This document shows, piece by piece, positions 442-59,200 of a stretch of DNA of 64,000 bases. The notes under the pieces are model-generated. The model was not told the DNA's origin and did not search any database. It worked only from the letters and a program-made list of their open reading frames with translations. The DNA is from an uncultured Holophagae bacterium (GTDB taxonomy: Bacteria > Acidobacteriota > Thermoanaerobaculia > Thermoanaerobaculales > Sulfomarinibacteraceae). Both the position numbers and the translations under genes were made by a program. Location of the stretch: the NCBI GenBank assembly GCA_963797055.1, contig CAWCOD010000005.1:189995-253994 (forward strand), read 5' to 3'. The stretch's first letter is position 1; every line of letters begins with the position of its first letter.

Positions 442-1118
442 GTGAGCCAGTTTAAACGGTGTACGGGAATCGAGGGGGTTGGAGAATTCGAAATTCGAAA
501 TTCGAAAACCCCCACCCATCCGGGGACAAGGAGCAAGGAACACCCCCCGCCCGCCCCGGTTCCAAGATGCAAGATGCAAGATCCAACCCCCGTTCCAGAA
601 CAGTTCCGAGATTCGAGTTCCGGGTTCCGAGTTTGGACTTGCCCCGCTCGGGGCACCGATACAAGGGGGAAAGGTGAGGAGGTGAGAAGGCGGAAGGACG
701 GCACGATCGGATTGACGGGTTTGGGTGTCGCTGCATTCTCCCGACTTGACCGCCAGAAACGCTGGGTTGAATTCGGACCTCATCGGGCGCAGCGTGACGA
801 CGCGACTCCCCTAAGTTCTAGGGCGCAGAGGGATCGGATGGGCGCCCACCTCTCCTTCTCACCTTCTCACCTTCTCACCTTCTCACCTCCCTATCGGACG
901 GTAGTGCTCACTGCCGAGGAGAACCGGGACTCGGGGCTCGGAGACCGGTTTGCCGTTCCAAGACCATCAATCCATCCGATTCCCGATCCCCGAGCTCCGA
1001 TTCCCATCTGCCTTTCACCAGACCGAACTATGGTTGCTCCCTGCCCCCTGCTCCCTGCTCCCTGCCTACTGCCTACTGCCTGCTTCCTCATGCTAACCTG
1101 CGGTCGACCGGGAGGGTT
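442..1118. repeat. Repeat-dense intergenic region with several 7-8 nt tandem arrays and C-rich boxes
   Basis: Read directly: (gaattcg)x3 at 484-508, CCCCCACCC box at 509-520, (gcaagat)x3 at 562-584, gttccgag-like units at 592-645, (ccttctca)x4 at 852-890, ctgctcc/ctgccta units at 1035-1087. ORFs predicted here (442..1122+, 438..704-) only translate the repeats. Confidence 0.8.
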
Positions 1119-2326: not shown

Positions 2327-2496
2327 CATTTCGAATTTTGAATTTTGAATTTCGAATTCAAAAAATGGACCCACAGCCACGGCGTACGTTAAACGTTCAA
2401 CGTTAAACGTTACACGTTTGGCTCTTGACCCTTTGCCACAAACCCAGCCCCTGACGTTCAACGTTTAACGTGTAACGTTCAACGTGTAACGACGTG
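2327..2496. repeat. Tandem arrays: tttcgaa/ttttgaa heptamers (2327-2365) and two ACGTT-centred octamer arrays (2385-2419, 2452-2496)
   Basis: Direct reading: catttcgaattttgaattttgaatttcgaattc; acgttaaacgttcaacgttaaacgttacacgtt; acgttcaacgtttaacgtgtaacgttcaacgtgtaacg. Confidence 0.85.
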
Positions 2497-5827: not shown

Positions 5828-8173
5828 ATGAGTATGGTGTCGAGGGCGACTTTCGCGCTGGTGGTTGGTGTCTTGTGGGCGGGTTTTGTCATGGCCCAGA
5901 CGCAGCCGCCGCCGTTTGGCGACCGGCGTGGCGGCGAGGAGGACCGGATCCGACAACGGATCGAGTGGTTCGTCCAAACAAGAGGACTCGATCGGGTGTC
6001 GAGGGCGGATCGATTGCGCAGCGAGGCTGTGCTTGCGGTCAAGGCGGTTCGAGACGCGGACTCCGGCCGACGGTCGCCACCATGGACACCGCTGGGCCCG
6101 AACTCGATGACCATGTTGGATTGGCGGATTGAGGACGTTTCGGGCCGGGTTTCAGCCTTGGCGGTCCATCCCGAAGATGAGGACATCATCTATCTTGGTT
6201 CGGCCTCCGGCGGGCTCTGGAAGACCATCGACGGTGGCGGCTCATGGTCGCCGATCTTTGACGACGTAGGAACGCTGACCATCGGCAGCGTGGTGATCGA
6301 TCCGTCCTCTCCGGACACGTTGTGGGTGGGCACCGGTGAGCAGGGGCAGAGCTGCTGGTCGTACTTCGGGATGGGGCTTTTCCGCTCCACCGACGGGGGC
6401 GAGTCGTTCGAACCGGTCAATGGATCGGATTCTCAAACCCTGGACCTGTCTTTCATTACCGGCATCGTCGTCCATCCCGATCGTCCCGGGAACATCGTCG
6501 TGGGGGGTGAGACCTGGTGCGATGACGGTGCCTTTCTCTACGGTGGGCTCTATCGGTCCACCGACGGGGGGACCTCGTGGCAGCGGGAGATTTCGGGCGC
6601 CGTCACCGACGTGATCATGGACCCCAGCAGGCCCGACACGCTCTACAGTGCGGTAGGTCGGTGGTCGAATAACGTCAACGGCGTCTACCGCAGTACCGAT
6701 GCGGGCGCGACGTGGACCAGACTCGAGGGCGGTCTGCCGTTCGGCGCTCAAGTGGGTCGGACCCGGCTCGCCATGGCGCCTAATGACAGCGCGACGATCT
6801 ACGCCTTGATGAACCACGAATCAGGGGTGGAGTTGTACCGTTCCACCGACGGTGGCGACACGTGGGTTCTCACCAACCCCGACGCCTGCGACGGTCAATG
6901 CTGGTACAACCTGTGCCTTGCGGTGCACCCGCTCGATGCCACGCGACTTCTGCTGGGCGCGGTCCGCTTCTACGCTTCCCTCAACGCCGGGACCACGCTT
7001 GCTCCGCTGATCGACTTCTGGGGCCCCGGTCAGACGGTCCACCAGGACATTCACGTGCTGGTCTATTCACGGTTGGATCCAAACCGGTTTTGGGTTGCGG
7101 GCGACGGCGGTATCTGGCGATCCGACGACGGTGGTGTCAATTTCGAAAACCTCAACGCAAACTTGAACCTCACCCAGTATTACGACATCGCGGTCCATCC
7201 TTCAGATGCTTCGACTGTCTTTGGTGGTTCGCAGGACAACTCCTCGTCGGCCACCATGGGCGATATCAAATGGGACGTCACAGTGGTCACCGGAGATGGG
7301 TTCATCAACGTGGTGGACTCCGAAGATCCGCAGATCGTTCTTCAAACCTCGTACCCGTACGAGGGGTACCCTTCGCTCTTCCAGTCCATTTCAGGGGGGA
7401 TCCCCAACAGCTTTCAGTGGTTGTGGCTCACCGGTGTCACGCAGTACGAACCGTGGCCGTGGGTGACGCCCCTTGCGTCGTTGGCTTCGGGGAGCGGCAA
7501 CAACCATCTGTTGCTCGGATCGGACCACGTCTATCGGTCATCCACCGCCCACCCCAGCCAATGGACAAAGGTCTCGGGTGATCTCACCGGAACCAACGGA
7601 AGCCTGAGCGTGCTGCTGCCGGTGGCCAACCAGGACACGGTCATGGTCTACGCAGGGACCGGAAACGGCAAGATCCACAGAACCGACGACGTCCTGGCGG
7701 CCGCCCCCGAATGGGTCGATGTGACGGGCAACTACCCCGGAGACACGGTCACCGACATCGCCGTGGATCCCCAAGATCCGCTCGTCGTGCTGGTCACCCG
7801 CGGCCAATTCGACGCCAGTCGTCTCTACCGGTCCTCAACCGGCGGCACCGCGTGGCAGGCGGTTGGCGCCGGGTTGCCAAACGTGCCTGCCAACACCGTG
7901 GTGGTGGATCCGACGGACGGACGCCGGGTATTTGTTGGGACCGACGTGGGTGTGTTTGTCAGCACGGACCGAGGATTGAGCTTTGAGCCGATTGTGGATG
8001 GCCTGCCCTTGGGTTTGGTTGTGACAGACTTGGAGGTGGACGGCGATCCCCACGTTTTGACGGCGGGAACCTATGGTCGCGGCGCGTGGCAGCTCGAGCT
8101 CCGACCAATCGATCTCTTGGACGACGGCTTCGAGTCGGGGGATCTCTCCGCCTGGACGACCAGCTATCCGTGA
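5828..8173 (+). CDS. Secreted BNR/Asp-box repeat beta-propeller protein (sortilin/Vps10/GH74-like)
   Basis: Signal peptide MSMVSRATFALVVGVLWAGFVMAQ. Eight Asp-box-like motifs: IDGGGSW, STDGGESF, STDGGTSW, STDAGATW, STDGGDTW, SDDGGVNF, SSTGGTAW, STDRGLSF. Confidence 0.85.
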   Translation: MSMVSRATFALVVGVLWAGFVMAQTQPPPFGDRRGGEEDRIRQRIEWFVQTRGLDRVSRADRLRSEAVLAVKAVRDADSGRRSPPWTPLGPNSMTMLDWRIEDVSGRVSALAVHPEDEDIIYLGSASGGLWKTIDGGGSWSPIFDDVGTLTIGSVVIDPSSPDTLWVGTGEQGQSCWSYFGMGLFRSTDGGESFEPVNGSDSQTLDLSFITGIVVHPDRPGNIVVGGETWCDDGAFLYGGLYRSTDGGTSWQREISGAVTDVIMDPSRPDTLYSAVGRWSNNVNGVYRSTDAGATWTRLEGGLPFGAQVGRTRLAMAPNDSATIYALMNHESGVELYRSTDGGDTWVLTNPDACDGQCWYNLCLAVHPLDATRLLLGAVRFYASLNAGTTLAPLIDFWGPGQTVHQDIHVLVYSRLDPNRFWVAGDGGIWRSDDGGVNFENLNANLNLTQYYDIAVHPSDASTVFGGSQDNSSSATMGDIKWDVTVVTGDGFINVVDSEDPQIVLQTSYPYEGYPSLFQSISGGIPNSFQWLWLTGVTQYEPWPWVTPLASLASGSGNNHLLLGSDHVYRSSTAHPSQWTKVSGDLTGTNGSLSVLLPVANQDTVMVYAGTGNGKIHRTDDVLAAAPEWVDVTGNYPGDTVTDIAVDPQDPLVVLVTRGQFDASRLYRSSTGGTAWQAVGAGLPNVPANTVVVDPTDGRRVFVGTDVGVFVSTDRGLSFEPIVDGLPLGLVVTDLEVDGDPHVLTAGTYGRGAWQLELRPIDLLDDGFESGDLSAWTTSYP

Positions 8174-8275
8174 ATTTTTAATTCTCAATTTTGAATTTTG
8201 GATTTCCACCCTCCCCCCGTTTGATCCGGGCGGGTGGGGGCATAATTTAAAATTGAGATTTCAGAATTAAAAATT
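8173..8275. repeat. Foldback element between convergent genes: heptamer arm + C-box ... G-box + heptamer arm
   Basis: AATTTTTAATTCT (8173-8185) is the exact inverted repeat of AGAATTAAAAATT (8263-8275). The inner arms are imperfect. Core boxes are CCACCCTCCCCCC (8208-8218) and GGGCGGGTGGGGG (8228-8240). It may act as a bidirectional terminator. Confidence 0.75.
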
Positions 8276-8294
8276 TGTCGTCAAGGACGACCGG

Positions 8295-10771: not shown

Positions 10772-11137
10772 ATGGTGACCACCCACGACCTCGGCTACTT
10801 CCGCGTGGTGATTGAAATGGCGCTCGAGGAACCGATGGACATTGTGGACGACGACGGGGGTGACTCGCCGGGTCGGGCCAACGGCTACTACCAGGCATTC
10901 AGCGTGACCGCTGAGAGCTTCTCCCAGGCTGTCGCTTTCGTCGAGGAAGCCCTCGCTGACCTCGTCACCGAGGAGCCGGAGATCGCCGGGTGGCTGGTAC
11001 AAGTCGAGGTGGATACCTGGTCCGAACCGTCGGTGGATCCCGCTGATGAGTTTCTTCAGGATCCTCGGGAAGGCGGCGTGCACTTCATTTCGGATCGCGG
11101 GTTCTTTCTCGCGATGGAGGAAGAGGCAGGGACCTGA
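10772..11137 (+). CDS. Hypothetical acidic protein
   Basis: 121-aa ORF with protein-like composition and no family I recognise. Confidence 0.45.
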   Translation: MVTTHDLGYFRVVIEMALEEPMDIVDDDGGDSPGRANGYYQAFSVTAESFSQAVAFVEEALADLVTEEPEIAGWLVQVEVDTWSEPSVDPADEFLQDPREGGVHFISDRGFFLAMEEEAGT

Positions 11138-11204
11138 GGTCTTGAAACCGCAAACCCCCACACGGCCCTCGTGACGAAGTCCTTCGCTCCTCGTGCCGTC
11201 GACC

Positions 11205-11372
11205 ACCAGCGAGGTGAGAAGGTGAGAAGGTGAGAAGGAGAGGTGGGCGGGGGCTCCGACTTCGCGTTTCGCTACGCTGTGACACGTCTCCCATCTTGAA
11301 TCTTGCATCTTGCATCTTGCATCTTGGATCTTGGATCTCTGGATCTTAGATCGGGTGGGTGGGCGCCCGTTT
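11205..11372. repeat. Tandem arrays (ggtgagaa)x3 at 11212-11238 and (atcttgN)x8 at 11293-11350, each followed by a G-box
   Basis: Direct reading. G-boxes are ggtgggcggggg (11242-11253) and gggtgggtgggcg (11353-11365). The same unit types occur in opposite orientation at 562-890. Confidence 0.85.
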
Positions 11373-11398
11373 GCTAGAGTACGTGGCTGAGGATTCTG

Positions 11399-13455: not shown

Positions 13456-13645
13456 GTCGAAAGCCCAAAGTCGAAAGTTGAAAGTCCCCACCCTCCCGTT
13501 GCGAGGGGGCGCGAAAAGCGGGCGTGCCGTCTTCGGGCGCATTGCGAACGCGCTCACCCGGTGCCAGGCACCGTCGAAATCAAATCGTAGTACGAGGTCG
13601 ACACATCTGCAGCGGTGCCTGGCACCGACACGAATTTCGAATTGG
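13456..13645 (+). repeat. Intergenic composite: gtcgaaag units, GC 5' box, GGTGCCAGGCACC hairpin cassette (copy B1), heptamers
   Basis: GAACGCGCTCACCCGGTGCCAGGCACCGTCGAA (13546-13577) pairs with GCGGTGCCTGGCACCGACA (13612-13630). It is preceded by GGGGGCGCGAAAAGCGGGCGTGCC. Confidence 0.8.
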
Positions 13646-17974: not shown

Positions 17975-18138
17975 GAGATTCCAGATTCCAAATATCCACC
18001 CACCCGCCCGGCCCAAATTTCAGATTTCAGTTTATTCCGGAATACAGGGTGGGAGGGGGAATCTGCAATCTGCAATTTGCAACCAAGAACCTGCAATTGT
18101 CAGCACCCAATTCAAAATCCAGAATTCAACATTCAAAA
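17975..18138. repeat. Heptamer arrays flanking an inverted C-box/G-box pair
   Basis: attccagattccaa; CCACCCACCCGCCCGGCCC (17996-18014); atttcagatttcag; palindrome attccggaat; GGGTGGGAGGGGG (18047-18059); aatctgcaatctgcaatttgcaa (18060-18082); aattcaaaatccagaattcaacattcaaaa. Confidence 0.8.
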
Positions 18139-23135: not shown

Positions 23136-23152
23136 CGCCAGTCCACCTACCC

Positions 23153-23430
23153 CATTGCGAATTGCGAATTGCGAATTTCAGATTACAGATTGCAGATTGC
23201 AGATTCCGCCCGCCCACCCGGAGGGAGGAGGGTGCGTCTGGCGGGCGTGCGACTTTTGACATTGTTCGGATTCTCATCGCCGAAGGTACTGAGACAGGGG
23301 TCCGAACAATGTCAAGGGTGGCAACCTCGGGGAGCGCGTTAGGGAGAGGGCCACGCTGAAATCTACATGTCGAATCGAACGCGCTCACCCTGTGCCTGGC
23401 ACCCACATGGAATTTCGAATTCAAAATTCG
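23153..23430 (+). repeat. Composite intergenic element, copy A1: heptamer arrays + C-box + TTGACAxTGT hairpin element + half GGTGCC cassette + heptamers
   Basis: Heptamers 23153-23205; core 23206-23362 with stem ttgacattgttcgga (23256-23270) / tccgaacaatgtcaa (23301-23315); gaacgcgctcaccctgtgcctggcacc 23376-23403; ggaatttcgaattcaaaattcg. Confidence 0.85.
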
Positions 23431-23487
23431 TCACGGCTGGGCGGGTCGACCTCATACCTCATGACCCAAACTCCGGGGGTGGGGGGG

Positions 23488-24081
23488 CTATCCCGAGTTG
23501 TACTCGTTCTTGGGAACCCGCATGCCCGGTATGAGAAGCCGTTCGGCAACCACCGTGATCGCCTTGGGCTCTTCGGGACAGGCCTGTTCGCACAGGCCGC
23601 AGCCGGTGCAGGCACCCGACCCGATCAGCGGCCGGCCGCCGATGATCATGATCGCGCGGTCGGGATATGGGCACGTCCGATAGCAGTGGTCGCAGTGCTG
23701 GCCTTTGAAGGTGACGCAGCGTCTGGGATCGACCTTGGCGATTCCGATCCGCACCCGTTCGGGCCCTCCGGAAAAGACCAGGGCTCCGTCGGGGCACGCG
23801 GTGATGCAGGGCAGATCGTCGCACAGCACACAGGCCGTCATCGACGGCGAGATGGCGGGGACTTCGCAGGCTCCGCCAATTTCCATCATGAAGATCGCCT
23901 TGGGTGGACACACTTCAGCGCAGTCGGCGCAGCCGGTGCACGCCTCGAGGAACGCCTCGTCCGGCGCCAGGGCTCCCGGTGGTCGGAGGACCGTCCCGGA
24001 GTCCGGACCTCTCGGCGCCGCCGACCGGAATTCACTGAGGAATCCGAACAACAGTTCTCGCCGGGAACGGCGCCGATCCAT
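23488..24081 (-). CDS. Tat-exported ferredoxin-type protein with four [4Fe-4S]-like Cys clusters (NapG/MauM-like)
   Basis: Twin-arginine signal MDRRRSRRELLFG. Cys clusters: CTGCADCAEVCP, CVLCDDLPCITACP, CVTFKGQHCDHCYRTCP, CTGCGLCEQACP. Confidence 0.75.
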   Translation of the reverse strand: MDRRRSRRELLFGFLSEFRSAAPRGPDSGTVLRPPGALAPDEAFLEACTGCADCAEVCPPKAIFMMEIGGACEVPAISPSMTACVLCDDLPCITACPDGALVFSGGPERVRIGIAKVDPRRCVTFKGQHCDHCYRTCPYPDRAIMIIGGRPLIGSGACTGCGLCEQACPEEPKAITVVAERLLIPGMRVPKNEYNSG

Positions 24082-24084
24082 CGA

Positions 24085-25296
24085 TCAGTCTCCGGCGCCC
24101 GGTGGGAGCGCCACCTCGTCCCATGACTGAGTGTCGCTGGTGGACATGATCTCGGTGGCTTCCACCGCGCTGCGCACGAGGGCCTCCACATCCAGCGCCT
24201 GCTCGGCCCTCGCCAATTCGTCGGCCCTCGACTTCGTGGCCGGGTTGTCGGGCATCAGAAAGGAGCAGCAATCCTGGTGGGGTTCGATGGAGATGTCGAA
24301 GGTGCCAATAGCGCGAGCCCGCGAGATGATCTCCTGTTTGTCGAAGCCGATCAGTGGTCTCAGAACCGGCATGTCGGTCACCGCCTCCACAGCCGCCAGA
24401 TTTTCGATGGTCTGGGAGGCCACTTGACCAAGCGCCTCACCGGTCACCAGGGCGCGGCTGCCGAATCTACGGCTCAGAACCTCTGCGATGCGGAGCATGA
24501 AACGGCGGTAGAGGAGTACGCGGTACTCCTCCGGGCAACGCGCAACGATCAGCTCCTGAATGGACACCAACGGCACCGACGCGATTCGCGCGGAGTGCTG
24601 GTACCGATTGAGGATCCAGATCATCCGGTGGACCTTCTCGATGCTGGCCGGGTTGGTCCTCGGCACCGAATGGAAGTGGATGAAGTCGAGCCGCATTCCC
24701 CGTCTGAGCATGGCCCACGCGGCCACCGGTGAGTCGATACCGCCGGACAGCAGACTGGCGGCGCGACCGCCAACCCCCACCGGCAACCCACCGGGCCCCG
24801 GCACGCCACGGGTCCAGAGATAGAGCCCCCTGTCATCCACCAGGATGCTCACTGTTAGCCCCGGTCTGCGCAGATTCACCGGCCACCCGGTGCGCTGCTG
24901 GACAAAGGTGCCGATCTCGCGCTCGACCTCGGGTGACGTCAACGGGAATCGTTTGTTCGACCTGGTGCATCGGACCGCGAAGGTATCCGTTTCCAAAGAT
25001 TCGAGTCTGGGGCTCAGGGCCTTCTTGAGATCGTCAAGGGTGTGGCCGGTAAACTGGACAGGTCGAATGGACTTCAGTCCGAAAACAGTCACAAGCCGCC
25101 GAGCAGCGTCCTCGAAGATCACTTCTTCGGAAAAGGTAATCAGCACTCGCCAGGCCGGACGTTGGATCGCCTCGACCGGCAGATCGGCCAGTGCGGTCCG
25201 GATGTTGTCGGTGAGCTGCCGCTCGAACCACGGGCGGTTACCGCCCTTGAGGCTGATCTCGTTGGTACTGGCGAGGATCATGGTCACCCGGTCCAT
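24085..25296 (-). CDS. thiI: tRNA 4-thiouridine synthase ThiI
   Basis: NEISLKGGNR N-terminus, THUMP region, PP-loop SGGIDSPVAAW. I chose ATG 25296 because upstream ORF-track codons translate repeats (ICNLQSAICNL). Confidence 0.85.
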   Translation of the reverse strand: MDRVTMILASTNEISLKGGNRPWFERQLTDNIRTALADLPVEAIQRPAWRVLITFSEEVIFEDAARRLVTVFGLKSIRPVQFTGHTLDDLKKALSPRLESLETDTFAVRCTRSNKRFPLTSPEVEREIGTFVQQRTGWPVNLRRPGLTVSILVDDRGLYLWTRGVPGPGGLPVGVGGRAASLLSGGIDSPVAAWAMLRRGMRLDFIHFHSVPRTNPASIEKVHRMIWILNRYQHSARIASVPLVSIQELIVARCPEEYRVLLYRRFMLRIAEVLSRRFGSRALVTGEALGQVASQTIENLAAVEAVTDMPVLRPLIGFDKQEIISRARAIGTFDISIEPHQDCCSFLMPDNPATKSRADELARAEQALDVEALVRSAVEATEIMSTSDTQSWDEVALPPGAGD

Positions 25297-25328
25297 AGCC
25301 CCAGACTTTAACATTCGATGAGATCGTG

Positions 25329-25638
25329 GCAGATTGCAGATTGCAGATTGCAGATTGCAGATTCCCCCGCCCACCCGGAGGGAGGAAGGCGCGATGGGCG
25401 GGCGTGCCGTCTTTGACAATGTTGGAGGTTGAGAGTTACACGGTCGTAGAACGTCCCGACATTGTCAAAGGGGGCAACCTCGGGGAGCGCGTGGGGAGAG
25501 GGGCGCGACGAAATCGGCTGATCGTGCCAAAGATCTTCTGAAGAGCGGCCGCACCGCGGTCCCCGACCCGGGCAGGGTGGGGGACATTCAAATCTGCAAA
25601 TCTGAAAATTCAATAGCCGGGTGGGCTGGAGGGTAGGT
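25329..25638 (+). repeat. Composite intergenic element, copy A2, with inverted heptamer + C/G-box termini
   Basis: (gcagatt)x5 at 25329-25364; core 25366-25516 with stem tttgacaatgttgg (25412-25425) / ccgacattgtcaaa (25456-25469). The right end GGGTGGGGG + attcaaatctgcaaatctgaaaattc (25577-25614) mirrors the left end. Confidence 0.85.
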
Positions 25639-25639
25639 G

Positions 25640-26643
25640 TCAGGGTGAGATCCAGATCGGACGCGGCGAAAAGCTGAGCACGAAGATGACCAGTGCCAAC
25701 CAGCCGACCCATTTCCGCCGGTCATCCAGCGGGCGATGCTCGTCGAGCACCCTTGGATGACGGGGCCCGAGGACCATGATGATCACCGACCAGACCCACC
25801 AGCCCGGCCACAGGAATCCGAGGCGACCAGCGCCGCCACCAGTGGCCACGCCGCGATCTGGTGGAAACGTCCGAATAAAGCGTAGGTCACGTGACCCCCA
25901 TCGAGCTGAAAGAACGGGAGCATGTTCAGGGCCGTCACGAAGAGGCCGAACCAAGCCGCCCACGCCGTTGGGTGGAGCATGATGTCCTCACCGACGCCGA
26001 GTTCACCAAAAAACAGGACTCTGGCGACGAATCTGAAGAGGATCGGCTCGCCGAAATAGACCGCTGTGGAGTCGGGTACCGCCTGCACGCCGGAGGCGGC
26101 CACTCCGAGAACGAGGAATGGCAGCAGGGTGACGAAACCGGCAATCGGTCCCGACGCGCCAACATCCATCAGTTGACGGCGACTGCGGATGGGGTCCTTG
26201 ATGCGGATCACGGCGCCAAGAGTGCCCGGGCTGAAGAGCAGCGGAACCGGCATGGGTAGAAAGTAGGGAGGCGTGGCGCGAAGACCGTGCCGCCTGGCCG
26301 CGAAGTAGTGGCCGAGTTCGTGGGCGAGCAAGATCGTCATCAGGGGTAGGGAGAATTTGAGGCCTTCCACGACCAGTCGAGGATCGGTGACCCGATCCAA
26401 GAGATCGGGGCTCGGGAGCCAACCGTAGTAGAGACCACCGCAGAAGGTGGAGGATGCCAGGGTCAGCGCGAAAAGGAGCCCGTGCAGCCACCACCGGGGT
26501 GGACGGGGCGGCGGTGGTTCGTGGAGTTCGAATGGAAGGGGAATCTCGTCCGCCGTCCGAACCGTGGAATGTGGCGGACGAGAATTCGCCCCGGCGGGGT
26601 CACCGCCGGGGCGATTGGGTTGTGTGAGATTGTCGCGGTCCAC
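25640..26643 (-). CDS. Site-2 protease family (peptidase M50) membrane metalloprotease; frame break near 25830
   Basis: HELGH zinc motif and NMLPFFQLDGGH. ORF 25783..26643 ends ..AAWPLVAALVA, and the protein continues as LGFLWPGWWVWSVIIMVLG.. in ORF 25640..25963. The span of 1004 nt is not a multiple of 3. Confidence 0.75.
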
Positions 26644-26645
26644 GC

Positions 26646-26915
26646 CTACTGCATATTGCGCAGTGACTTACCAGGCTTGAAGCGGATGGTTTTGCCGGGA
26701 GGAATCTCGACTTCGTGGCCGGTCTTTGGGTTGCGGCCGATGCCACGCTTGCGGTCCTTTACAAGAAAAACGCCGAATCCCCGAAGCTCGATGCGGTCAC
26801 CCCTGAGAAGGGCCTCTTTCATGCCCTCGAAGAGAGCGTTGACCGCCTCGGTGGCCTTTGGTTTTGGGAGGTCGGCGGCCTCCATGACCCTTTCGACGAG
26901 ATCCGATTTGATCAT
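26646..26915 (-). CDS. Integration host factor / HU family DNA-binding protein (IHF-like)
   Basis: MIKSDLVERV...RIELRGFGVFLVKDRKRGIGRNPKTGHEVEIPPGKTIRFKPGK is the IHF/HU fold signature with a beta-arm. Confidence 0.85.
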   Translation of the reverse strand: MIKSDLVERVMEAADLPKPKATEAVNALFEGMKEALLRGDRIELRGFGVFLVKDRKRGIGRNPKTGHEVEIPPGKTIRFKPGKSLRNMQ

Positions 26916-27024
26916 CCCCTAACTCCTTCCCACGACAGGATCAGAAAACATAGCCTCAAGTCCTACCTGTGTCAAGGGATTGCCGACGCAGCCGCCGGAC
27001 CCCACCGTCCCAGGCCAGGATGAA

Positions 27025-27429
27025 CTAGAACGGAACATCGTCCACGTCGTCGGGATACCCCTGGGAAACGGACCCGTAGTCGCTCCGCGAACCGCCCGAA
27101 TCGCCCTGGCGCGAGCCGAGCATTTCCATAGTCGACGCGTGGATTTCGGTGAAGTATTTCTTTTGGCCATCCTGCTCGTATGTTCGGGTCCGAATCGATC
27201 CCTCGATATACAGCTGCTTGCCTTTGGTGACGTAGCGATCGCAGATCTCGGCCAGCTTTCCCCAGGTCACGATGTTGTGCCACTCGGTCCTGGGGTTGCC
27301 GTCCTCGTCCTTGGATCGTTTGTCGGTCGTGGCCAGTGAGAACTTGCAGAGGTGAGTTCCGCTCGGCAGTGATTTCATCTCCGGGTCACGGCCGACGTTG
27401 CCCACGAGGATGACTTTGTTGATGCCCAT
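27025..27429 (-). CDS. ssb: Single-stranded DNA-binding protein
   Basis: MGINKVILVGNVGRDPE OB-fold N-terminus, acidic tail DDVDDVPF. AAGGAGA lies upstream of ATG 27429. The ORF-track extension to 27633 translates repeats. Confidence 0.9.
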   Translation of the reverse strand: MGINKVILVGNVGRDPEMKSLPSGTHLCKFSLATTDKRSKDEDGNPRTEWHNIVTWGKLAEICDRYVTKGKQLYIEGSIRTRTYEQDGQKKYFTEIHASTMEMLGSRQGDSGGSRSDYGSVSQGYPDDVDDVPF

Positions 27430-27491
27430 GAGTTGTCTCCTTGCCCGCGTGGACGGGGGAACGACGATCTTAACATGGCGCGCGTCGACGG

Positions 27492-27515
27492 ATGATACCG
27501 CCCTCCCGCCCTCCC
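27492..27515 (-). promoter_or_regulatory. G-quadruplex-type motif followed by TATCAT (minus strand), ~62 nt upstream of ssb
   Basis: The minus strand reads GGGAGGGCGGGAGGGCGGTATCAT. On the plus strand this is ccctcccgccctccc at 27501-27515 and atgata at 27492-27497. Confidence 0.3.
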
Positions 27516-27592
27516 ATTTCGAAAGTCGAATTCGAAGTACCCTACCCATCCGGAAGGCACCTCGCCCTTTTGCCCCAGATCGAGCGGGGACA

Positions 27593-27630
27593 ATCCGCAA
27601 TTCGCAATTCGCAATTCGCAATCCGTAATT
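27593..27630. repeat. Heptamer array (caattcg)x4
   Basis: ccgcaattcgcaattcgcaattcgcaatccgtaattc read directly. Confidence 0.85.
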
Positions 27631-27713
27631 CATAGTTGGCGGGAGCCGTATTGCCTCACGATCGCCATACGGCAGCCCTATCCGCCCGAAGTGCTGGTGG
27701 TACTCTTCGAGGG

Positions 27714-29282
27714 ATGAGTCAGGAGCGCCGGATCGTCAGACACGCGTCGAGGATGGCCGTGGTCACTCTGTTCTGCCGGGTGACCGGCTATCTCCGCGAC
27801 AAGGCGCTGTTTTCGGTGGTCGGCGCTGGGTTTTTGTACGACGCCTACCGCACCGCCAATCGCATTCCGAACGCGTTTCGGGGCCTGTTCGCCGAGGGGA
27901 CCCTGCATGCCGCCTTCGTGCCCACACTGGCTCAGATGGTGGCGCGGGACGAAAGGTCCGAGGAGTCGCGTGAGCTCTTCCGAGGGCTCTTGGCCGTGCT
28001 GATCCTGGTCGTCGGACTCGTCGTCGCGCTGGGAATCGTGCTGTCGCCGTGGCTGGTGGCGCTGTATGCGAAGGGCTTTTCCGCGACCCCGGGCAAACTG
28101 GAGACGACGGTTCTGATGAACCGGATCATGTTCCCCTATCTGCTCCTGATTTCATTGGCGGCGCTGCTCCAGGCGGTGCTCAACAGCCACGAGCGCTTTC
28201 TGTTGGCGGCCTCCACACCGATGTTCTTCAACCTCACGGTCGCCGGGGTCGCCTGGGCGGTGGTGCCGCGGGTCAAAGACCCCGCACCGGTGCTGGCGGT
28301 GGCGGTGCTGGCCGGCGGTGTTCTCCAATTCGCGGTCCAGGCGCCGGCTGTCCGCCGCCTCGGTTACCGGCTGACGCCCCTGTGGAAGGGAATCCGTGAC
28401 CCGGCGGTCCACCGGGTGCTCCTGCTGATGTTGCCCGGGATCCCGGTGCTCGGCATCAACCAGTTCAACCAGCTGATCTCCAACCGGTTCGCGTCGTTTT
28501 TCGATGGCGGGGTCAGCTACACCTACGGCGCCTACCGTGTCACCGAACTGGTGTTCGGCGCCATCGTGGTGCAACTCACCACGGTCCTGCTTCCGGTGTT
28601 GTCGAAGGAACTCAAGGAACGCCCCGATCGTGCGCCGGTGACTCTGCTCAATACCATGTCTCTGGTCAGCTTCGTGACTCTGCCCGCCGCCGTGGTCATG
28701 GCCGCACTTTCGGGACCGATCATCGGCCTGCTCTTTGGAGGCGGCCGTTTCAACTCACAGGATGTGGCGATCACTGGAGCGACGCTCTTTGCCTATGCGT
28801 TTTCGCTGGTGGGAACCGGGCACGTCAAGGTCATGGCCAGCGCCTTCTTCGCCCAAAAGAACACCAGGACGCCCATGTGGGGGAGCCTGGTGGCGTTGAT
28901 CATCTTCACCACGGCGTGTTGGCTTTTTGTGAAGCCGCTTGGGGTTCCCGGGCTCGGCTGGGCGAATACCGTGGCCATGACGGTGTTTGGCGTGTTCCTG
29001 ACCGTGCTGTACGCAGTGACGTATGGATTCGAGGGCGCAAACCTCTGGCCGACGGTGGTCGCGGTTGTCCGGCAAGTCGTCGCCGCAGCGGTGATCGGGG
29101 TGGGGCTGGTCTGGGTCGCCCCGCGACTCGGCGTCATCGACCACACGAGTCTCAACGGCGCCTTCCGACTGTTGGCTGTGCTGCTTCCAGCGGGGTTGGC
29201 CTACGTGGCGTTGGTGACGGCCCTCGGTGGTCGCGAACTGGCCACGGTCGCGGCCACGTTCAACGGGGGAGGAGAGGAGTGA
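27714..29282 (+). CDS. murJ: Lipid II flippase MurJ (MviN family)
   Basis: N-terminus VTLFCRVTGYLRDKALFSVVGAGFLYDAYRTANRIPNAFRGLFAEGTLHAAFVP is typical of MurJ, with ~14 TM helices. Start is ATG 27714. Confidence 0.85.
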   Translation: MSQERRIVRHASRMAVVTLFCRVTGYLRDKALFSVVGAGFLYDAYRTANRIPNAFRGLFAEGTLHAAFVPTLAQMVARDERSEESRELFRGLLAVLILVVGLVVALGIVLSPWLVALYAKGFSATPGKLETTVLMNRIMFPYLLLISLAALLQAVLNSHERFLLAASTPMFFNLTVAGVAWAVVPRVKDPAPVLAVAVLAGGVLQFAVQAPAVRRLGYRLTPLWKGIRDPAVHRVLLLMLPGIPVLGINQFNQLISNRFASFFDGGVSYTYGAYRVTELVFGAIVVQLTTVLLPVLSKELKERPDRAPVTLLNTMSLVSFVTLPAAVVMAALSGPIIGLLFGGGRFNSQDVAITGATLFAYAFSLVGTGHVKVMASAFFAQKNTRTPMWGSLVALIIFTTACWLFVKPLGVPGLGWANTVAMTVFGVFLTVLYAVTYGFEGANLWPTVVAVVRQVVAAAVIGVGLVWVAPRLGVIDHTSLNGAFRLLAVLLPAGLAYVALVTALGGRELATVAATFNGGGEE

Positions 29283-29746
29283 AGCTGGTGATCCAGCGAA
29301 CGTCCCGAGCAGAGGTGCGCGTGGACGGGGAAACCGTGGGTCGGATCGGCGTGGGGCTGGTCGTCCTTGTGGGGCTCGAACGGGGCGATACCGAGGTCCA
29401 ACTCGAAAGCGCGGCGCGCAGGTTGGCGACACTGAGGGTCTTCGAGGATGACGACGGCAGGATGAACCGCGGGCTCGACGAGGTCGGTGGCGCGGTGCTC
29501 GCGGTTTCACAATTCACTCTCGCAGCGTCGATCCGCAAGGGACGGCGTCCCGGATTCGACCGGGCCATGCCGAGTGGACAGGCAGAACCGCTCTTTGGCC
29601 TCTTCATCGAGAAACTGCGGGCGCACGGTCTATCGGTGGAGACCGGGGTCTTTGGTGCGATGATGGAGGTGGACCTGGTCAACGACGGGCCGGTCACGCT
29701 CCTGTGGCAGGATCCACCCACCGACCACCCGAGAGTCGAGAGTTGA
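29279..29746 (+). CDS. dtd: D-aminoacyl-tRNA deacylase
   Basis: (M)KLVIQRTSRAEVRVDGETVGRIGVGLVVLVG..., SQFTL motif. GTG 29279 overlaps the murJ TGA (GTGA). Confidence 0.85.
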   Translation: MKLVIQRTSRAEVRVDGETVGRIGVGLVVLVGLERGDTEVQLESAARRLATLRVFEDDDGRMNRGLDEVGGAVLAVSQFTLAASIRKGRRPGFDRAMPSGQAEPLFGLFIEKLRAHGLSVETGVFGAMMEVDLVNDGPVTLLWQDPPTDHPRVES

Positions 29747-30123
29747 AGGTTGAAAGTTGAAAGTTGGGTTCATCCGGGAAAGCGTGAGGTGGGGGTGTCT
29801 GCCCGTCCGTCCCCGCTTGCCACGGCGTAAGCCGTTGCGAATCCGGGTGTCCGGGCCCGAGAGGCAGCGTTCAGCGACAGCGGCTGGGTGCAGCGAGCAG
29901 GGACAGTCATCAGGGGCAGCGATCAGTTGCTTCCGCGGCATGGAATGGGTCACCTCCGGGTCGTTCCATGGGATGAATAGCCGGTGGCCAGCCGATGTCA
30001 AGGGCAAGCCGGGCCAGAGGCCCGCTGGCGCTGGTTGCTGACGCTGCCATCTGTCCCGGATCGCTGTCGCTGCCGCTGGCATCGGTATGCGGGCCCCCGC
30101 GTTCGCTTCGATTGACTCATTTC

Positions 30124-30311
30124 GAGGCGCCCATCTCCCCGAGGCGCTCTCCGAGGTTGCCGCCTTTGACAATGTTGGGACTTCTGAGGCCGAGTGAATC
30201 AGCTGAATGGACCCAACATTGTCAAAGACGGCACGCCCGCCATACCCGCCCACCGCGCTCCGGGTGGGCGGAGAAATCTGCAATCTGCAATTCGCAATTT
30301 GCAATTCGTAA
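30124..30311 (-). repeat. Composite intergenic element, copy A6 (reverse orientation) with heptamer array
   Basis: Stem tttgacaatgttggg (30166-30180) / cccaacattgtcaaa (30212-30226); GGGTGGGCGG 30262-30271; aaatctgcaatctgcaattcgcaatttgcaattcg 30273-30307. Confidence 0.85.
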
Positions 30312-30326
30312 TGGACGGGCGGGGGT

Positions 30327-37445: not shown

Positions 37446-37623
37446 CCACCCTCTCCCCCAGTAAATAGAAAATTTGAATAGTAGATTAGGGGATTCATCT
37501 CTCCAGCAGGGGGGTGGCGTTCCGTACGTAACCCCGGCCCTCCGCCCACTATTCACCATTCACCCTTCCCATTCACTATGTGCCCCCGCCTCCTGCCTCT
37601 CTGCCCCCTGCCCCCTGCCCCCT
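37446..37623. repeat. Intergenic repeats: C-box, AT-rich units, G-box, (cattcac)-type and (ctgcccc)x3 arrays
   Basis: ccaccctctccccc; agtaaatagaaaatttgaatagtagatt; caggggggtgg; cactattcaccattcacccttcccattcactatg; ctgccccctgccccctgccccctg. Confidence 0.7.
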
Positions 37624-37624
37624 G

Positions 37625-45610: not shown

Positions 45611-45687
45611 CCCCCACCCGTTCATTACGAATTACGAATTGCGAATTTTTACGAATTGCGGACTTTGGGTTGCAGATTGCAGATTGT
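45611..45687. repeat. C-box plus heptamer arrays (attacga / gcgaatt / gcagatt)
   Basis: cccccaccc; cattacgaattacgaattgcgaatttttacgaattgcg...ttgcagattgcagattg. Confidence 0.85.
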
Positions 45688-45873: not shown

Positions 45874-46185
45874 AGGGTATGGAAGGTATGGCAAGTGTGG
45901 AGGGTGTGGAAATTGTCAAAGATGAACGTTGAACGTTACACGTTAAACGTTTGCCCCCCCCCAAAAAAAACACCTCAACCGAAGCAAGGGGGCGGGATGG
46001 GCGGGCGTGCCGTCCTCACGCGCTCCGAGAACGCGCTCACCCGGTGCCAGGCACCGTCGAACTCGCATCGGAGTACGAGATCTATACATCTGCGGCGGTG
46101 CCTGGCACCGACATGGAGATCGGAATACGAGGGTGGCTCCCTCGGGGAGCGCGGTTGGGAGATAGGCGCGTCGAAATCAGCGAAT
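45874..46185 (+). repeat. Composite: ggtatgga/gtgtgga units, ACGTT array, C9A8 tract, and GGTGCCAGGCACC cassette (copy B2) between the same 5' and 3' boxes as the A elements
   Basis: acgttgaacgttacacgttaaacgtt at 45926-45951. 5' box ggcgggatgggcgggcgtgcc; arms ccggtgccaggcaccgtcgaa (46041-46061) / gcggtgcctggcaccgaca (46096-46114); 3' box ggtggctccctcggggagcgcggttgggagataggcgcg. Confidence 0.8.
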
Positions 46186-50420: not shown

Positions 50421-50592
50421 GTGGTTGAATTCGGAATTTGAAGACCCCGCCCACCCGGAGCGTGAGGGCGCGATAGGCGGGTGTGCCACTTTTGACATTG
50501 TTCGGGTCCTCATCGCTGAAAAATCTGAGACTGGGGTCCGAACAATGTCAAGGGTGGCAACCTCGGGAAGCGCGTGGGGAAAATCGGCGCGA
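50421..50592 (+). repeat. Composite intergenic element, copy A3
   Basis: gttgaattcggaatttgaaga; core 50446-50592 with stem ttgacattgttcggg (50492-50506) / ccgaacaatgtcaa (50538-50551). Confidence 0.85.
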
Positions 50593-50654
50593 CGGCGCTG
50601 TGCAGTGGATTCAGTCGCGAACCTGAAAGTACTTGGAGGACCTGCGGAAAGCAT

Positions 50655-55182: not shown

Positions 55183-55814
55183 ATGAACAGGATGTCGATT
55201 TTTTCGGATGTGTTGCGGCGATTGAAGTATGGCCGGCCGGTGGTCGTGGTCTCGGGGCTGCCGAGATCAGGAACCTCCATGGCCATGAAGATGCTCGAGG
55301 CGGGTGGTCTCGATGTGGTGACCGACAAGGTCGGACCCCGGACGAGGACAACCCAAAGGGTTACTACGAGGACGAGAGGGTCAAGGACCTCGCTGAGATG
55401 GACGACAAGGAGTGGTTGCGGGATGCGCGGGGCAAGGTGATCAAGATCGTGTCCTTGTTGCTGCAGTACCTCCCCGACACCAACTTCTACAAGGTCGTCT
55501 TCATGCGGCGACATCTGCAAGAAGTGCTGGCCTCCCAGGCGAAAATGCTCGATCGGCGAGGGGAAGCGTCGGAGACCTCGGACGAAGAGATGCTGCAGAT
55601 GTACGGCGGCCACCTCGACAAGATCCAGTTCCAGCTGCGGTTCAGGGACTATTTCGACGTCTTGTACGTGGACTTCCGTGATGCCCTCGAGGACCCTGTG
55701 CGCGAGGCAAAGAGAATCAACAATTTCCTCGGGGGCGGTCTGGACGAGGGAAAGATGGTGGAGGTCGTGGATCCGGAGCTGTACCGCAATCGGATTGCCG
55801 AACTCAGTGAATAG
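55183..55814 (+). CDS. Sulfotransferase family protein; frame break near 55335
   Basis: PAPS-binding 5'-PSB loop VVVSGLPRSGTSMAMKML in ORF 54979..55440. It continues ..TPDEDNPKGYYEDERVKDL..KVVFMRRHLQEVLASQ in ORF 55077..55814. Confidence 0.7.
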
Positions 55815-55911
55815 TGAGTGGTGAATAGCGAATAGTGAATAGAAGTGGAGCGCTTGGTTGCCAAGAACGACTGCAGCTCGTAGACGCTGCAGACGATTCC
55901 TATTCACTATT
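55807..55911. repeat. gtgaata/gcgaata heptamer array, small hairpins, and inverted ctattcactatt
   Basis: gtgaatagtgagtggtgaatagcgaatagtgaatagaagtgg; cttgg-ttg-ccaag; ctgcag..ctgcag; ctattcactatt. Same unit type as 37547-37580. Confidence 0.75.
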
Positions 55912-56440: not shown

Positions 56441-56615
56441 GAGAAAATTCGAAAATCGAAATTTGAAATTCGAATGCCCGTTTTGGCCAAGGTTGTTTCA
56501 GCGCGCCCTTCTCCTCACCGCGCTACCCGAGGTTGCCCCTTGACAATGTCGGGACTCCAAGAGCCGGGCGACTCAGCCGTAGAGCCCCAACATTGTCAAA
56601 GAGGGCACGCCCGAT
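56441..56615 (-). repeat. Heptamer array plus composite element copy A7 (reverse orientation, lacks the C-box end)
   Basis: gagaaaattcgaaaatcgaaatttgaaattcgaat at 56441-56475. Stem ttgacaatgtcggg (56540-56553) / ccccaacattgtcaaa (56585-56600). Confidence 0.8.
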
Positions 56616-56671
56616 CATCGCGGCCAAACGCTCTGGATCGTTGGGGGCAATAACCCGATGGCCCCTAGGCC

Positions 56672-57914: not shown

Positions 57915-58258
57915 CCCCGCCCACCCATTACGAATTACGAATTACGAATTGCAGATTGCAGATTGCAGGTTGCAGATTCCCGCCCACCGGAGCGAGGTTG
58001 CGGGCGTGCAGAATTCGCGAGGATGTGCGAGATGCAGAGTCCTCCGCCCACCCGGAGAGAGGAGGGCGCGTCTGGCGGGCGTGCCACTTTTGACATTGTT
58101 CGGAGGTTTCGATGCAGCCGAAGGTACCCGAGGACAGGGAGTCCGAACAATGTCGAAGGGTGTGGCAACCTCGGGTCGGCGCGTTAGGGAGAGTGGCCAG
58201 CGCTGAAATCTACGATGTCGGATCGAACGCGCTCACCCGGTGCCAGGCACCGACATGG
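57915..58258 (+). repeat. Composite intergenic element, copy A4: C-box, heptamers, solo 5' box, full core, half GGTGCC cassette
   Basis: ccccgcccaccc; (attacga)/(gcagatt) arrays 57927-57979; solo box cccgcccaccggagcgaggttgcgggcgtgc 57979-58009; core 58043-58210 with stem ttgacattgttcgga / tccgaacaatgtcgaa; gaacgcgctcacccggtgccaggcaccgaca 58225-58254. Confidence 0.85.
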
Positions 58259-58788: not shown

Positions 58789-59200
58789 GAATTGAAAATG
58801 TGAAATGAGAAATGAGAAATGAAGGAAGTGAAAATTCGAACACCCCCACCCGCCCGGAGCGTGAGGGCGCGATAGGCGGGCGTGCCACTTCTGACACTTT
58901 CGGGAGGATGGGCGGCGATGCCGTCGGTGCCGTCCGGTCCCGAATAGTGTCAGGGGTGGCAACCACGGGGAGCGCGGTCGGGAGAGGGGCGCGCGGAATC
59001 GACAGATCGAATCGAACGACAGGACCCCCGTGGATCGGCCGTCCCGGCTGCAATCTCCGAGTTGTTGGATCCCACGATTGCAGGCGGGACGCCTGCTCCA
59101 CAATGCAGGCCCCAGGCTGCGCTACAACGCCGTGCCGGGCGGGTGGGCGGAACGTTTAACGTTCAACGTTCAACGTTTACACCCTCCACACCTTCCACAC
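58789..59200 (+). repeat. Composite intergenic region: gaaatga units, element copy A5, G-box, ACGTT array, ccacac units
   Basis: gaaaatgtgaaatgagaaatgagaaatgaagg; core 58843-59000 with stem ctgacactttcggga (58891-58905) / tcccgaatagtgtcag (58938-58953); gggcgggtgggcgg 59137-59150; aacgtttaacgttcaacgttcaacgttt 59151-59178. Confidence 0.8.

Follow-up and report, generated by a model that had tools for sequence, protein, structure and literature searches.

The window analysed here, 64,000 nucleotides of contig CAWCOD010000005.1 (positions 189,995 to 253,994) from an uncultured Holophagae bacterium (assembly GCA_963797055.1), contains many intergenic tandem arrays of 7-nt units, to which an earlier note on its sequence had drawn attention. 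One of them lies upstream of the gene for ThiI and is our point of reference. This flagged array, (GCAGATT)x5 at 25329..25363 on the plus strand (100% matches), precedes the ThiI start codon (25317, minus strand) by 12 nt; a Shine-Dalgarno sequence is not evident by eye between the two. On the other side of the array a C-rich box (C-box), CCCCCGCCCACCC, leads into a copy of a dispersed ~140-nt element, termed R1 (25378..25512, plus strand, 110 bits in a covariance-model search), which forms a covarying long hairpin and whose GGGCGTGCC motif is located 36 nt 3′ of the array. A degenerate partner array, CAAATCTG at 25586..25614, represents the reverse complement of GCAGATT, is assigned period 8 by Tandem Repeats Finder (TRF) and is preceded by a G-box, GGGTGGGGG. 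The minimum-free-energy fold pairs 25586..25614 with 25327-25363. An open reading frame (ORF) extending upstream of ThiI (24085-25464, minus strand) reads the flagged array as ICNLQSAICNL, the translation artefact that had been pointed out previously.

We detected arrays with TRF and with an independent scan using one score threshold across all periods. Period 7 accounts for 35 of the 71 TRF rows in the window, and the independent scan returned 20 period-7 arrays, compared with zero to two at each other period from 4 to 13; seven arrays scored at period 14 are period-7 tracts read at double period. Dinucleotide-preserving shuffles contained no array. A laxer threshold yields 25 period-7 arrays, 24 of which are scored as intergenic, and the single array scored as lying in a gene (2454-2478) touches only the 3′ end of a crude ORF call; apart from overlaps at gene ends, these 25 arrays are found outside coding sequence. 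The window arrays are built from 7-nt units repeated head-to-tail in three or more copies, and ∼30 intergenic sites harbor them. The earlier note had listed about 20 heptamer sites; 13 of these 19 correspond to clear arrays (485, 2328, 8171, 17976, 18060, 23154/23175, 25329, 27591, 30275, 45624/45670, 56443, 57927/57948, and 58796), and the other six are short or degenerate (8245-8275, 18015-18033, 18107-18137, 23411-23430, 50424-50444, and 25586-25614, the last with TRF period 8). At least 12 further arrays were absent from that list, including the longest one (11293-11352) and several heptamers rich in G and C.

We located related loci (L-numbered below) on metagenome contigs and in relatives from ENA, JGI and Logan assemblies of many samples. 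The best named homologue of the window ThiI shares 66% sequence identity and comes from a Thermoanaerobaculales metagenome-assembled genome (MAG). Syntenic relatives have ThiI proteins with 92% (L085), 91% (L083 and L084), 85% (L082), 84% (L081), 69% (L204), and 64% (L206) identity; L205 is a named MAG and is not syntenic. We found nine period-7 arrays in 21 kb of L081, three in 13 kb of L082, 15 in 21 kb of L204, and five in 21 kb of L206, and no strong array but one weak inverted pair in 21 kb of L205 (71.5% GC). In L081, L082, L204, and L206, 32 of 36 arrays map to called intergenic regions and the remaining four to doubtful gene calls. Within 809 kb of element-bearing DNA we counted 188 period-7 arrays and at most 12 of any other period, leaving aside period 14, whose 119 arrays are period-7 arrays recounted. 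A control set of 80 loci from unrelated bacteria (1.39 Mb) returned two period-7 arrays, and the density of such arrays is ∼160-fold above that of unrelated genomes (1.4 Mb).

The window is 60-68% GC throughout (63% for the genome), and array units mostly have two or three G/C in seven positions. Among 208 unit consensuses from the window and related contigs, 167 have at most three G/C, and hence the AT-rich character previously ascribed to the arrays holds for most but not for all of them, with TGCTCCC, TGCCCCC, and AGGGAGC being GC-rich examples from the window. The arrays fall into at least 25 families of canonical units. None of the published heptads (the short tandemly repeated repetitive (STRR) sequences, TAACTGA, GGGAATC, GGGGATT, TTTTGAT, and ATCTTTC) is present as an array, and the STRR units, which we take to be CCCCAGT, TTGGTCA, and CAACAGT, have 0 tandem occurrences in 873 kb.

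Self-comparison of the window revealed the R1 element beside many arrays. A covariance model identifies eight copies in the window (scores 52-121 bits), and the 19-nt core GGCAACCTCGGGGAGCGCG is found on 118 metagenome contigs. Our alignment of 40 copies, with a unit length of 136-143 nt, outlines a 5′ arm (GGGCGCGATGAnCGGGCGTGCC), a stem of 16-20 bp round a ∼35-nt loop, and a 3′ arm (GGCAACCTCGGGGAGCGCG), with CGGGCGTGCC and GGCAACCTCGGGGAGCGCG as the conserved or invariant arm sequences. The two ∼45-nt arms form an imperfect palindrome (72% complementary) and R1 thus represents one long imperfect hairpin around the ∼35-nt loop. Its consensus fold contains 25 pairs, 16 of which show changes on both sides. 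In this fold 95.8% of alignment cells are paired. Column shuffles give 82%, with none of 500 attaining the figure for R1, and controls with slid partners give 39-53%. The alignment holds ∼100 G·U cells, which become mismatches on the opposite strand, indicating that one R1 strand is favored. Rfam returned no match at the gathering score for the whole window and none at E ≤ 1 over 23100-25700, and a search of plasmid, phage, and viral-contig collections with R1 gave no real match. R1 is apparently undescribed.

Arrays and R1 are linked in a strand-specific manner. Among elements with sufficient flanking sequence, 43 of 91 have a period-7 array within ∼170 nt on their 5′ side, compared with 4 of 93 on the 3′ side, which agrees with the earlier proposal that the arrays form the 5′ flank of a ∼150-nt element; no period other than 7 is enriched beside R1. 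The distance from the array end to GGGCGTGCC falls into two classes: at 35-37 nt, a C-box such as CCCCCACCCnCCC is positioned between array and R1, and the 60-63-nt class corresponds to a diverged R1 subfamily, in which GCCGGCGCGGGG follows the array. The usual order is array, C-rich box (CCCnCCCnCCC), and hairpin core, and an inverted G-box with its array sometimes closes the far side of the unit. Certain array types and R1 subfamilies pair recurrently at unrelated loci, as seen for (ATTGCGA)n(ATTGCAG)m and GTCGAAA/GTTGAAA. CCCnCCC or GGGnGGG is found within 20 nt of 40% of the AT-rich arrays but of only 3.7% of random positions, and a looser box definition associates 16 of 25 window arrays with a box. 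The reported association with CCCACCC or GGGTGGG boxes is therefore real, although "almost always" overstated it. The C-boxes consist of CCC runs with single-base spacers (17999-18009, 23209-23219, 25366-25376, 50446-50456, 57916-57926, and 58845-58855, together with complements). Some have four such runs (e.g. in L095, L109, and L135), and judging from their sequence the complementary strand of these could form a G-quadruplex with 1-nt loops.

The strictly 5′ position of the array on the G·U-favored strand, at 35-37 or 60-63 nt in two diverged subfamilies, is what one would expect if R1 were a family of small RNA genes, with the AT-rich array serving as a promoter or UP-like region, or as an unstructured 5′ leader, and being maintained for its AT-richness and spacing rather than for its sequence. 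RNA-like covariation, internal loops that do not vary, and a length that hardly leaves the range of 136-143 nt are in line with this idea, and so is an orientation unrelated to that of the neighboring genes (sense in 8 cases, antisense in 10, convergent in 10, and divergent in 2), as for an autonomous transcription unit. However, no σ70-like −35/−10 pair could be detected within or behind the arrays, the scan of 23000-30500 placed its single promoter-like site elsewhere, and array and R1 are separated by a C-rich box that offers no AT-rich −10. No terminator could be detected 3′ of R1, either in a promoter/terminator scan of 23000-30500 or in the R1 alignment. Half of the R1 copies have no array, and arrays flank other cores too and are abundant in L204, which has no R1, so that arrays and R1 are separable. 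This model also leaves period 7 unexplained, and we regard RNA genes as an unlikely solution. No gene family recurs among the neighbors of >100 element copies, and this, together with the lack of a relation between R1 orientation and flanking genes, is the distribution expected of DNA resembling repetitive extragenic palindromic (REP) sequences or miniature inverted-repeat transposable elements (MITEs) that avoids promoter regions.

The arrays are the outermost layer of the intergenic inserts. Their median distance to a gene boundary is 20.5 nt, compared with 44 nt upon random placement in the same spacer, and 72% lie within 30 nt of a boundary (36% for random placement); of 32 arrays, 19 adjoin the 3′ end of a gene and 13 the start. 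Neighboring arrays 20-400 nt apart that have a common unit form 11 inverted pairs and no direct one (5.7 and 6.1%, respectively, for random array pairs). Array-bearing intergenic regions reach folding z-scores of −3 to −5 on either strand, and several show array-array pairing. L204 contains three copies (1841-1992, 7900-7980, and 15517-15623) of a small foldback unit, (ATTGCGA)n-TGCCTGCCGAGATCG...CTCGGACGCC-(AATTCGC)n, whose arms are exact reverse complements. In the convergent spacer between the genes for a Fer4 protein and GpsA, arrays are present in the window and in the six relatives examined (L081, L082, L083/L084, L204, L205, and L206, making seven loci). L083/L084, L205, and L206 have inverted complementary pairs at this site (AGAACGA/TTCTTCG, TGAATGA/TCATTCA, and ATTTCGG/AAATCCG), the arms of which remain complementary across loci despite their differing units.

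This geometry would also suit arrays and GC-rich cores that are selected as transcript structures, namely as hairpin terminators, insulators, or 3′-end stabilizers, in a GC-rich genome where canonical U-tract terminators are scarce, with an AT-rich lower stem formed by the paired arrays. Consistent with this, most arrays abut gene 3′ ends, many spacers are convergent, folding is strong on both strands, and an array occupies the Fer4-GpsA spacer in all seven loci, with the complementary pair in L083/L084, L205, and L206 surviving the change of unit. The scan of 23000-30500 reported nothing at the arrays and no canonical intrinsic terminator at gene ends. One example is a convergent spacer of 121 nt (8174-8294), which consists of exactly an array, a GC hairpin, and an inverted array: (TGAATTT)x5, a C-box/G-box hairpin, and a degenerate inverted partner at 8171..8275, with a fold z-score of −4.2 and with the arrays pairing with one another. 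On the other hand, the 13 arrays at gene starts, some of them in divergent spacers, do not fit a terminator, most arrays lack a complementary partner, most units lack U runs, and strains with identical flanking genes have exchanged complete inserts (see below). Again, period 7 finds no explanation. A terminator-like role fits co-option of selfish repeats and so does not displace the explanation that we prefer; as an account of the arrays themselves we find it improbable.

Comparison of orthologous sites revealed that positions are kept while units are replaced. Upstream of ThiI, the window has (AATCTGC)5, L082 (ATCTGGA)6.6, and L081 (TTTCACA)7.3, and in all three the G-box beside the array and the gene start are conserved. 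AATCTGC and ATCTGGA differ by one base that is carried by every copy, a case of concerted evolution. L083 and L084 have the same ThiI protein sequence, and the 4.2 kb downstream match at 99.8% identity; their upstream spacers are unrelated, each being built of different arrays and boxes. The divergent spacer between MurJ and the single-stranded DNA-binding protein SSB, which in the window contains (CAATTCG)x5.9 at 27591..27631, has kept its edges, and its middle holds a separate set of arrays and modules in every one of the four genomes compared (the window, L081, L082, and L083). The edges comprise TGTTAAGAT, a promoter-like motif resembling an extended −10 element, and the ribosome-binding site AAGGAGA. 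Both are located upstream of SSB (27430-27480, minus-strand orientation) and are the only conserved parts of the spacer in L081, L082, L083, and L204.

An alternative raised in the earlier note, that the arrays are iterons bound by a protein, here taken to include DNA- or RNA-binding proteins as well as phase-variable spacers that tune a neighboring gene, is difficult to reconcile with these replacements, because sister genomes carry unrelated units at the same site (ThiI, Fer4-GpsA, and MurJ-SSB). With at least 25 unrelated unit families, none of them a known heptad, there is no shared recognition sequence; most arrays sit at 3′ ends (19 of 32) or between convergent housekeeping genes, and no regulator gene is linked to them. 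The genes next to arrays encode housekeeping functions (ThiI, GpsA, SSB, MurJ, aconitase, and aldehyde dehydrogenase) rather than the surface-exposed or restriction-modification proteins typical of contingency loci. In favor of binding or tuning, some arrays immediately precede a start codon, such as the flagged array 12 nt before the ThiI ATG, and copy number does vary; nucleoid-associated silencers would naturally target AT-rich stretches of a 63% GC genome, and cold-shock proteins bind ∼7 nt each (PMC4679880). We nevertheless consider a role as iterons or tuning spacers very unlikely.

Contig pairs with 97-100% identical flanks have arrays that differ in length by 14, 21, or 28 nt (50 and 29 nt in L087 and L188, 32 and 18 nt in L139 and L104, 27 and 55 nt in L167 and L201, and 35 and 63 nt for another array of the latter pair). 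Such exact multiples of 7 nt between near-identical contigs point to slippage, and as the arrays are shorter than a sequencing read, the length differences are unlikely to be an assembly effect. Together with the copy-number differences at orthologous sites, they bear out the suggestion in the earlier note that the arrays are slippage-prone tracts of variable length. That the arrays themselves are assembly or sequencing artefacts could be suspected from several window genes that are split in two ORFs matching one Pfam family, which suggests long-read indel errors. But arrays of 20-70 nt are below read length, like arrays are found at orthologous sites in independent ENA, JGI, and Logan assemblies from many samples, and identical arrays are present on independent contigs, so that we hardly credit this concern.

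Several comparisons speak for exchange of whole inserts. The R1 copy at 23221-23360 and its ortholog in L081 are 98.6% identical, whereas the flanking genes share 78-80% identity; moreover, a ∼170-nt block is 100% identical between window positions 23260-23430 and L081 positions 11896-12070, with flanking four-fold sites at 57%. L083, a closer relative than L081, holds an unrelated insert at the same Fer4-GpsA site. Judged from these alignments, vertical descent with purifying selection does not explain the identical block, and horizontal replacement or recent insertion would. Elsewhere, too, strains that are identical in the flanking genes show swaps of entire intergenic inserts.

On balance, we think it somewhat probable that the arrays are slippage-prone microsatellites that form the outer arms or the 5′ flank of foldback repeats resembling MITEs or REP doublets forming hairpins (REPINs), with rapid turnover and horizontal exchange. 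In our model, the arrays would be arms or 5′ flank of a mosaic of small, GC-rich, hairpin-forming non-coding modules, of which R1 is the best-defined one in this lineage related to Thermoanaerobaculales. The composite units would behave as non-autonomous mobile or recombining DNA, as MITEs or REPINs do, and may be copied by an enzyme encoded elsewhere. Replication slippage would account for array growth and shrinkage, with a bias for 7 nt that is presumably the same as in other bacteria, and foldback or template-switch synthesis may keep inverted arms complementary. Any role for the cell, for example as terminator-like hairpins between convergent genes, would be secondary.

A number of observations weigh against this interpretation. 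A scan of the domains of 40 window proteins returned no transposase, integrase, reverse transcriptase, or HUH-type gene, and no gene for such an enzyme is found beside >100 element copies; a gene for a REP-associated tyrosine transposase (RAYT) is likewise missing from the 64-kb window. We found no target-site duplication: there are 0 direct unit pairs, and the junctions next to the C-box are not conserved. Near-identical contigs also provide no clean example of an empty versus a filled site, and mobility is therefore argued from distribution and incongruence only. R1 is usually flanked by an array on one side only, and 52 of 65 neighboring array pairs (80%) share no unit. L204 is rich in arrays yet lacks R1. 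Co-inheritance of array unit and R1 stem is only weak (median core identity 0.64 versus 0.59; p = 0.003, the pairs not being independent). At the convergent Fer4-GpsA site, seven loci that span 64-100% ThiI identity have all retained an array or inverted pair, which could instead reflect selection for function. Finally, period 7 is not explained here but merely paralleled in other bacteria.

These points divide the earlier idea that the arrays are the termini of a foldback element: their outer-edge position, the 11:0 excess of inverted pairs, and the three-copy core of L204 speak for it, and the 80% of neighbors without a common unit, the one-sided arrays of R1, and the lack of target-site duplications and of a transposase against it. 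In its most explicit form, which we put forward tentatively and think rather unlikely, the array-C-box-R1 units and the array-core-array units of the relatives would constitute a prokaryotic foldback-type mobile element with heptamer-microsatellite ends, whose core is a strand-specific structured nucleic acid recognized by shape by an enzyme that is encoded elsewhere and possibly acts on single strands. If so, the 7-nt period would derive from a copying or end-processing mechanism rather than from generic polymerase slippage, and would offer a mechanistic origin for bacterial heptamer repeats (STRR and relatives).

Several other candidates were considered and rejected. Amplified 7-bp target-site duplications are ruled out, as array partners are inverted and never direct. 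Self-templating, in which the unit is copied from within the element, would require GCAGATT or AATCTGC in the R1 copy at 25378-25512, where by inspection both are absent. A three-frame stop-codon device, of the kind considered for TAACTGA, is rejected because the common units are free of stop codons in both orientations and are traversed by ORFs, and many units have no GGA, as would be needed for CsrA-type GGA repeats. An autonomous R1 with arms far apart was not recovered: the arms are separated by 70-89 nt in 85 of 118 cases and never enclose an ORF. Stemless R1 derivatives with directly joined arms do exist (L147, a 78-nt element), and L188 (1155-1170) has, in comparison with L087, lost one R1 arm and the stem by a deletion between 8-nt direct repeats, GCGAAAGG.

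The remaining window arrays and R1 copies show how these parts are combined. Downstream of GpsA, (ATTGCGA)x3.4 followed by (ATTGCAG)x4.4 (23151..23205, plus strand) starts 16 nt past the stop codon and lies 5′ of the R1 copy at 23221..23360 (plus strand, 116 bits), and a weak array, GAATTTC GAATTCA AAATTCG, is seen at 23411..23430. An AATCTGC/AATTCGC/AATTTGC array (30273..30312, minus strand) adjoins the stop codon of an S41 peptidase gene and is positioned 5′ of a minus-strand R1 copy (30121..30260, 111 bits). Likewise, the weak array GTTGAATTCGGAATTTGAAGA (50424..50444, plus strand) precedes the highest-scoring copy (50457..50596, plus strand, 121.5 bits), and (AAATGAG)x3.9 (58796..58822, plus strand) precedes the copy at 58856..58998 (plus strand, 111 bits). 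Upstream of R1 58055..58207 (plus strand, 78.5 bits), (ATTACGA)x3.4 and (ATTGCAG)x4.4 (57923..57978, plus strand) have a C-box on either side. The GAAAATC/GAAATTC array at 56443..56474, 49 nt upstream of the start of an AsnC-family gene, is the sole window case of an array on the 3′ side of R1 (56497..56634, minus strand, 110.6 bits). A variant R1 (45981..46175, plus strand, 52.6 bits) has the same arms and follows (AACGTTA)x3.9 (45923..45951, plus strand); its central stem is replaced by a GGTGCCAGGCACC...GGTGCCTGGCACC hairpin. This second hairpin module, which can stand in for the R1 stem, is present at 13560-13626 and 46043-46109, with half copies at 23391-23403 and 58239-58251, and is also found in L081 (9546-9656) and L082 (9978-10124).

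A divergent intergenic region of 677 nt contains (AATTCGA)x3.3, (CAAGATG)x3.4, and (AGTTCCG)x4.6 with C-boxes between them (485..633) and, on its right side, the GC-rich arrays (CCGATCC)x4.3, (TGCTCCC)x4.4, and (CTGCCTA)x2.9 (976..1081), with 8-mers at 671-690 and 850-888 forming an inverted pair. Between convergent genes, (ATTTCGA)x4.4, (ACGTTAA)x4.7, and (ACGTTTA)x5.4 occupy 2328..2491, and the two ACGTT arrays pair together in the fold. The longest window array, (ATCTTGG)x8.4 (11293..11352), is located just upstream of a thioredoxin-domain gene. At 13456..13486 (plus strand), (GTCGAAA)x4.4 is followed by CCCCACCCTCC and next by an R1 A-arm plus GGTGCC hairpin, and this array type is found again in L095, L167, L175, L182, L201, and L202. 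Four short arrays (AGATTCC, AAATTTCAG, AATCTGC x3.3, and an AATTCAA-like one) are nested round a C-box/G-box pair at 17976..18137. (CACCATT)x4.4 with (TGCCCCC)x6.3 (37547..37624) abuts a gene stop codon between convergent genes, (ATTACGA)x3.4 with (TTGCAGA)x2.4 (45624..45686) lies 30 nt upstream of a gene start with a C-box, CCCCCACCC, on the gene side, and (AACGTTC)x3.9 (59151..59177), preceded by the G-box GGGCGGGTGGGCGG, is 38 nt from a stop codon. A GAATAGC/GAATAGT array overlaps a gene stop codon at 55806..55842, and GAATAGT-type arrays are present in L081, too.

A CGAGAGT/TGAAAGT array (29727..29766) overlaps the stop codon of Dtd (29744-29746), which thus sits within an array. Gene callers also read through arrays at starts, as in L082, where the called ThiI (10001-11428) has 475 aa and begins ahead of the array. 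The arrays thus mislead gene callers, with over-long ORFs and with stop codons inside arrays as the result. A short module, GGTTCATCCGGGAnnnCGTGAGnTGG, follows arrays at two sites (29767-29795 and 50392-50420). Tandem arrays of other periods are far less common than those of period 7. They include the 8-mer inverted pair AAGGTGAG/CTCACCTT (671-690, 850-888, and 11212-11242) and arrays at 45876-45911 and 29863-29926 with the 9-mer GGTATGGAA and a 13-mer, the latter being found in L081 as well (20996-21060). Aconitase and a histidine kinase are each split over two ORFs in the window that encode successive portions of the protein, and two adjacent ORFs share one phosphodiesterase domain (16016-17251/17062-17958, 40087-41064/41078-41440, and 52804-53913/53968-54888). 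Frameshifted pseudogenes or indel errors from long-read assembly may underlie these splits; L081 has one undivided aconitase gene.

Cyanobacteria have provided examples of heptamer tandem repeats since about 1990, and among long simple sequence repeats heptamers later turned out to be the most over-represented ones in several phyla of bacteria. To our knowledge, neither a function nor the reason for period 7 has been established for bacterial heptamer repeats. Passages in two papers credit their over-representation to a survey of prokaryotic simple sequence repeats from 2007, and polymerase slippage with a ∼7-nt footprint has been proposed to underlie the bias (PMC4679880, PMC4692102). Known cases comprise STRR in Calothrix and Nostoc, GGGAATC in Xanthomonas, GGGGAYT in Nostoc PCC 7120, and TAACTGA in marine Beggiatoaceae (PMC4679880, PMC4692102). 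Some of these arrays are located directly upstream of start codons (PMC4679880), and Xanthomonas campestris and Xanthomonas axonopodis differ in heptamer length and sequence at the same intergenic sites (PMC4692102). The arrays described here resemble the Xanthomonas, Nostoc, and Beggiatoaceae repeats in having 7-nt tandem units in 2-10 or more copies, almost wholly intergenic, with period 7 favored, several unit families per genome, some inverted pairs, and variation among relatives. They differ in belonging to an acidobacterial phylum, in having AT-rich units in a 63% GC genome, in the absence of units that form G-quadruplexes and of any published unit, and in their fixed-distance, strand-specific link to a covarying ∼140-nt hairpin and to C/G boxes. 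We know of no description of such a link between array and hairpin element for other heptamer cases, and a full-text literature search returned no paper on repeats in Thermoanaerobaculia/Acidobacteria.

The R1-array units further share with REP/REPIN, bacterial interspersed mosaic elements (BIMEs), and BOX elements that they are short intergenic hairpin repeats, enriched at 3′ ends, depleted from divergent spacers, and assembled into modular mosaics. R1 resembles a REPIN doublet in being an imperfect palindrome of two ∼45-nt arms, but its consensus and invariant columns contain no GTAG-type motif as in REP/REPIN, and tandem heptamer arms set the units apart from REP and BIME. As in these repeats, no gene is linked to individual copies. 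BOX elements likewise contain a tandem module of variable copy number, but the repeated boxB module of pneumococcus measures ∼45 nt and is internal to the element rather than terminal. Similar to MITEs, R1 is small (∼140 nt), non-coding, multi-copy (eight in 64 kb), and subject to rapid presence/absence turnover, but no target-site duplication, matching autonomous element, or transposase was found in the 64-kb window or among the element neighbors. A subset of arrays (11 pairs, and the three L204 units) shares with Foldback (FB) elements the inverted terminal arrays of short units, although most arrays here are unpaired. FB elements are eukaryotic and have units of 10-31 bp.

Functional heptamers have been reported at single loci: TTTTGAT heptads at the Vibrio cholerae PctxAB promoter are linked to ToxR/H-NS (bioRxiv 10.1101/2021.05.14.444153), and heptanucleotide repeats upstream of Haemophilus influenzae hmw1A control this gene (PMC8262952). 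The ThiI-type arrays have in common with these that they are variable-copy heptamer arrays upstream of a gene, those of PctxAB being AT-rich as well. However, PctxAB and hmw1A each represent one locus with one unit and a known regulator, whereas here dozens of sites carry many units, many of them at 3′ ends and with no linked regulator. Taken together, the arrays belong to the known class of heptameric long simple sequence repeats, and they differ from the described cases in phylum, in units, and in the coupling to R1 and boxes. They provide a new phylum-level example in which heptamer arrays are tied to a definable hairpin element, to boxes, to inverted pairing, and to a position at gene ends. 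They could serve as strain markers, and their natural variation, with unit replacement, 7-nt steps, and spacer swaps, makes it possible to test slippage against copying and selfish repeats against terminators in this class of repeats.

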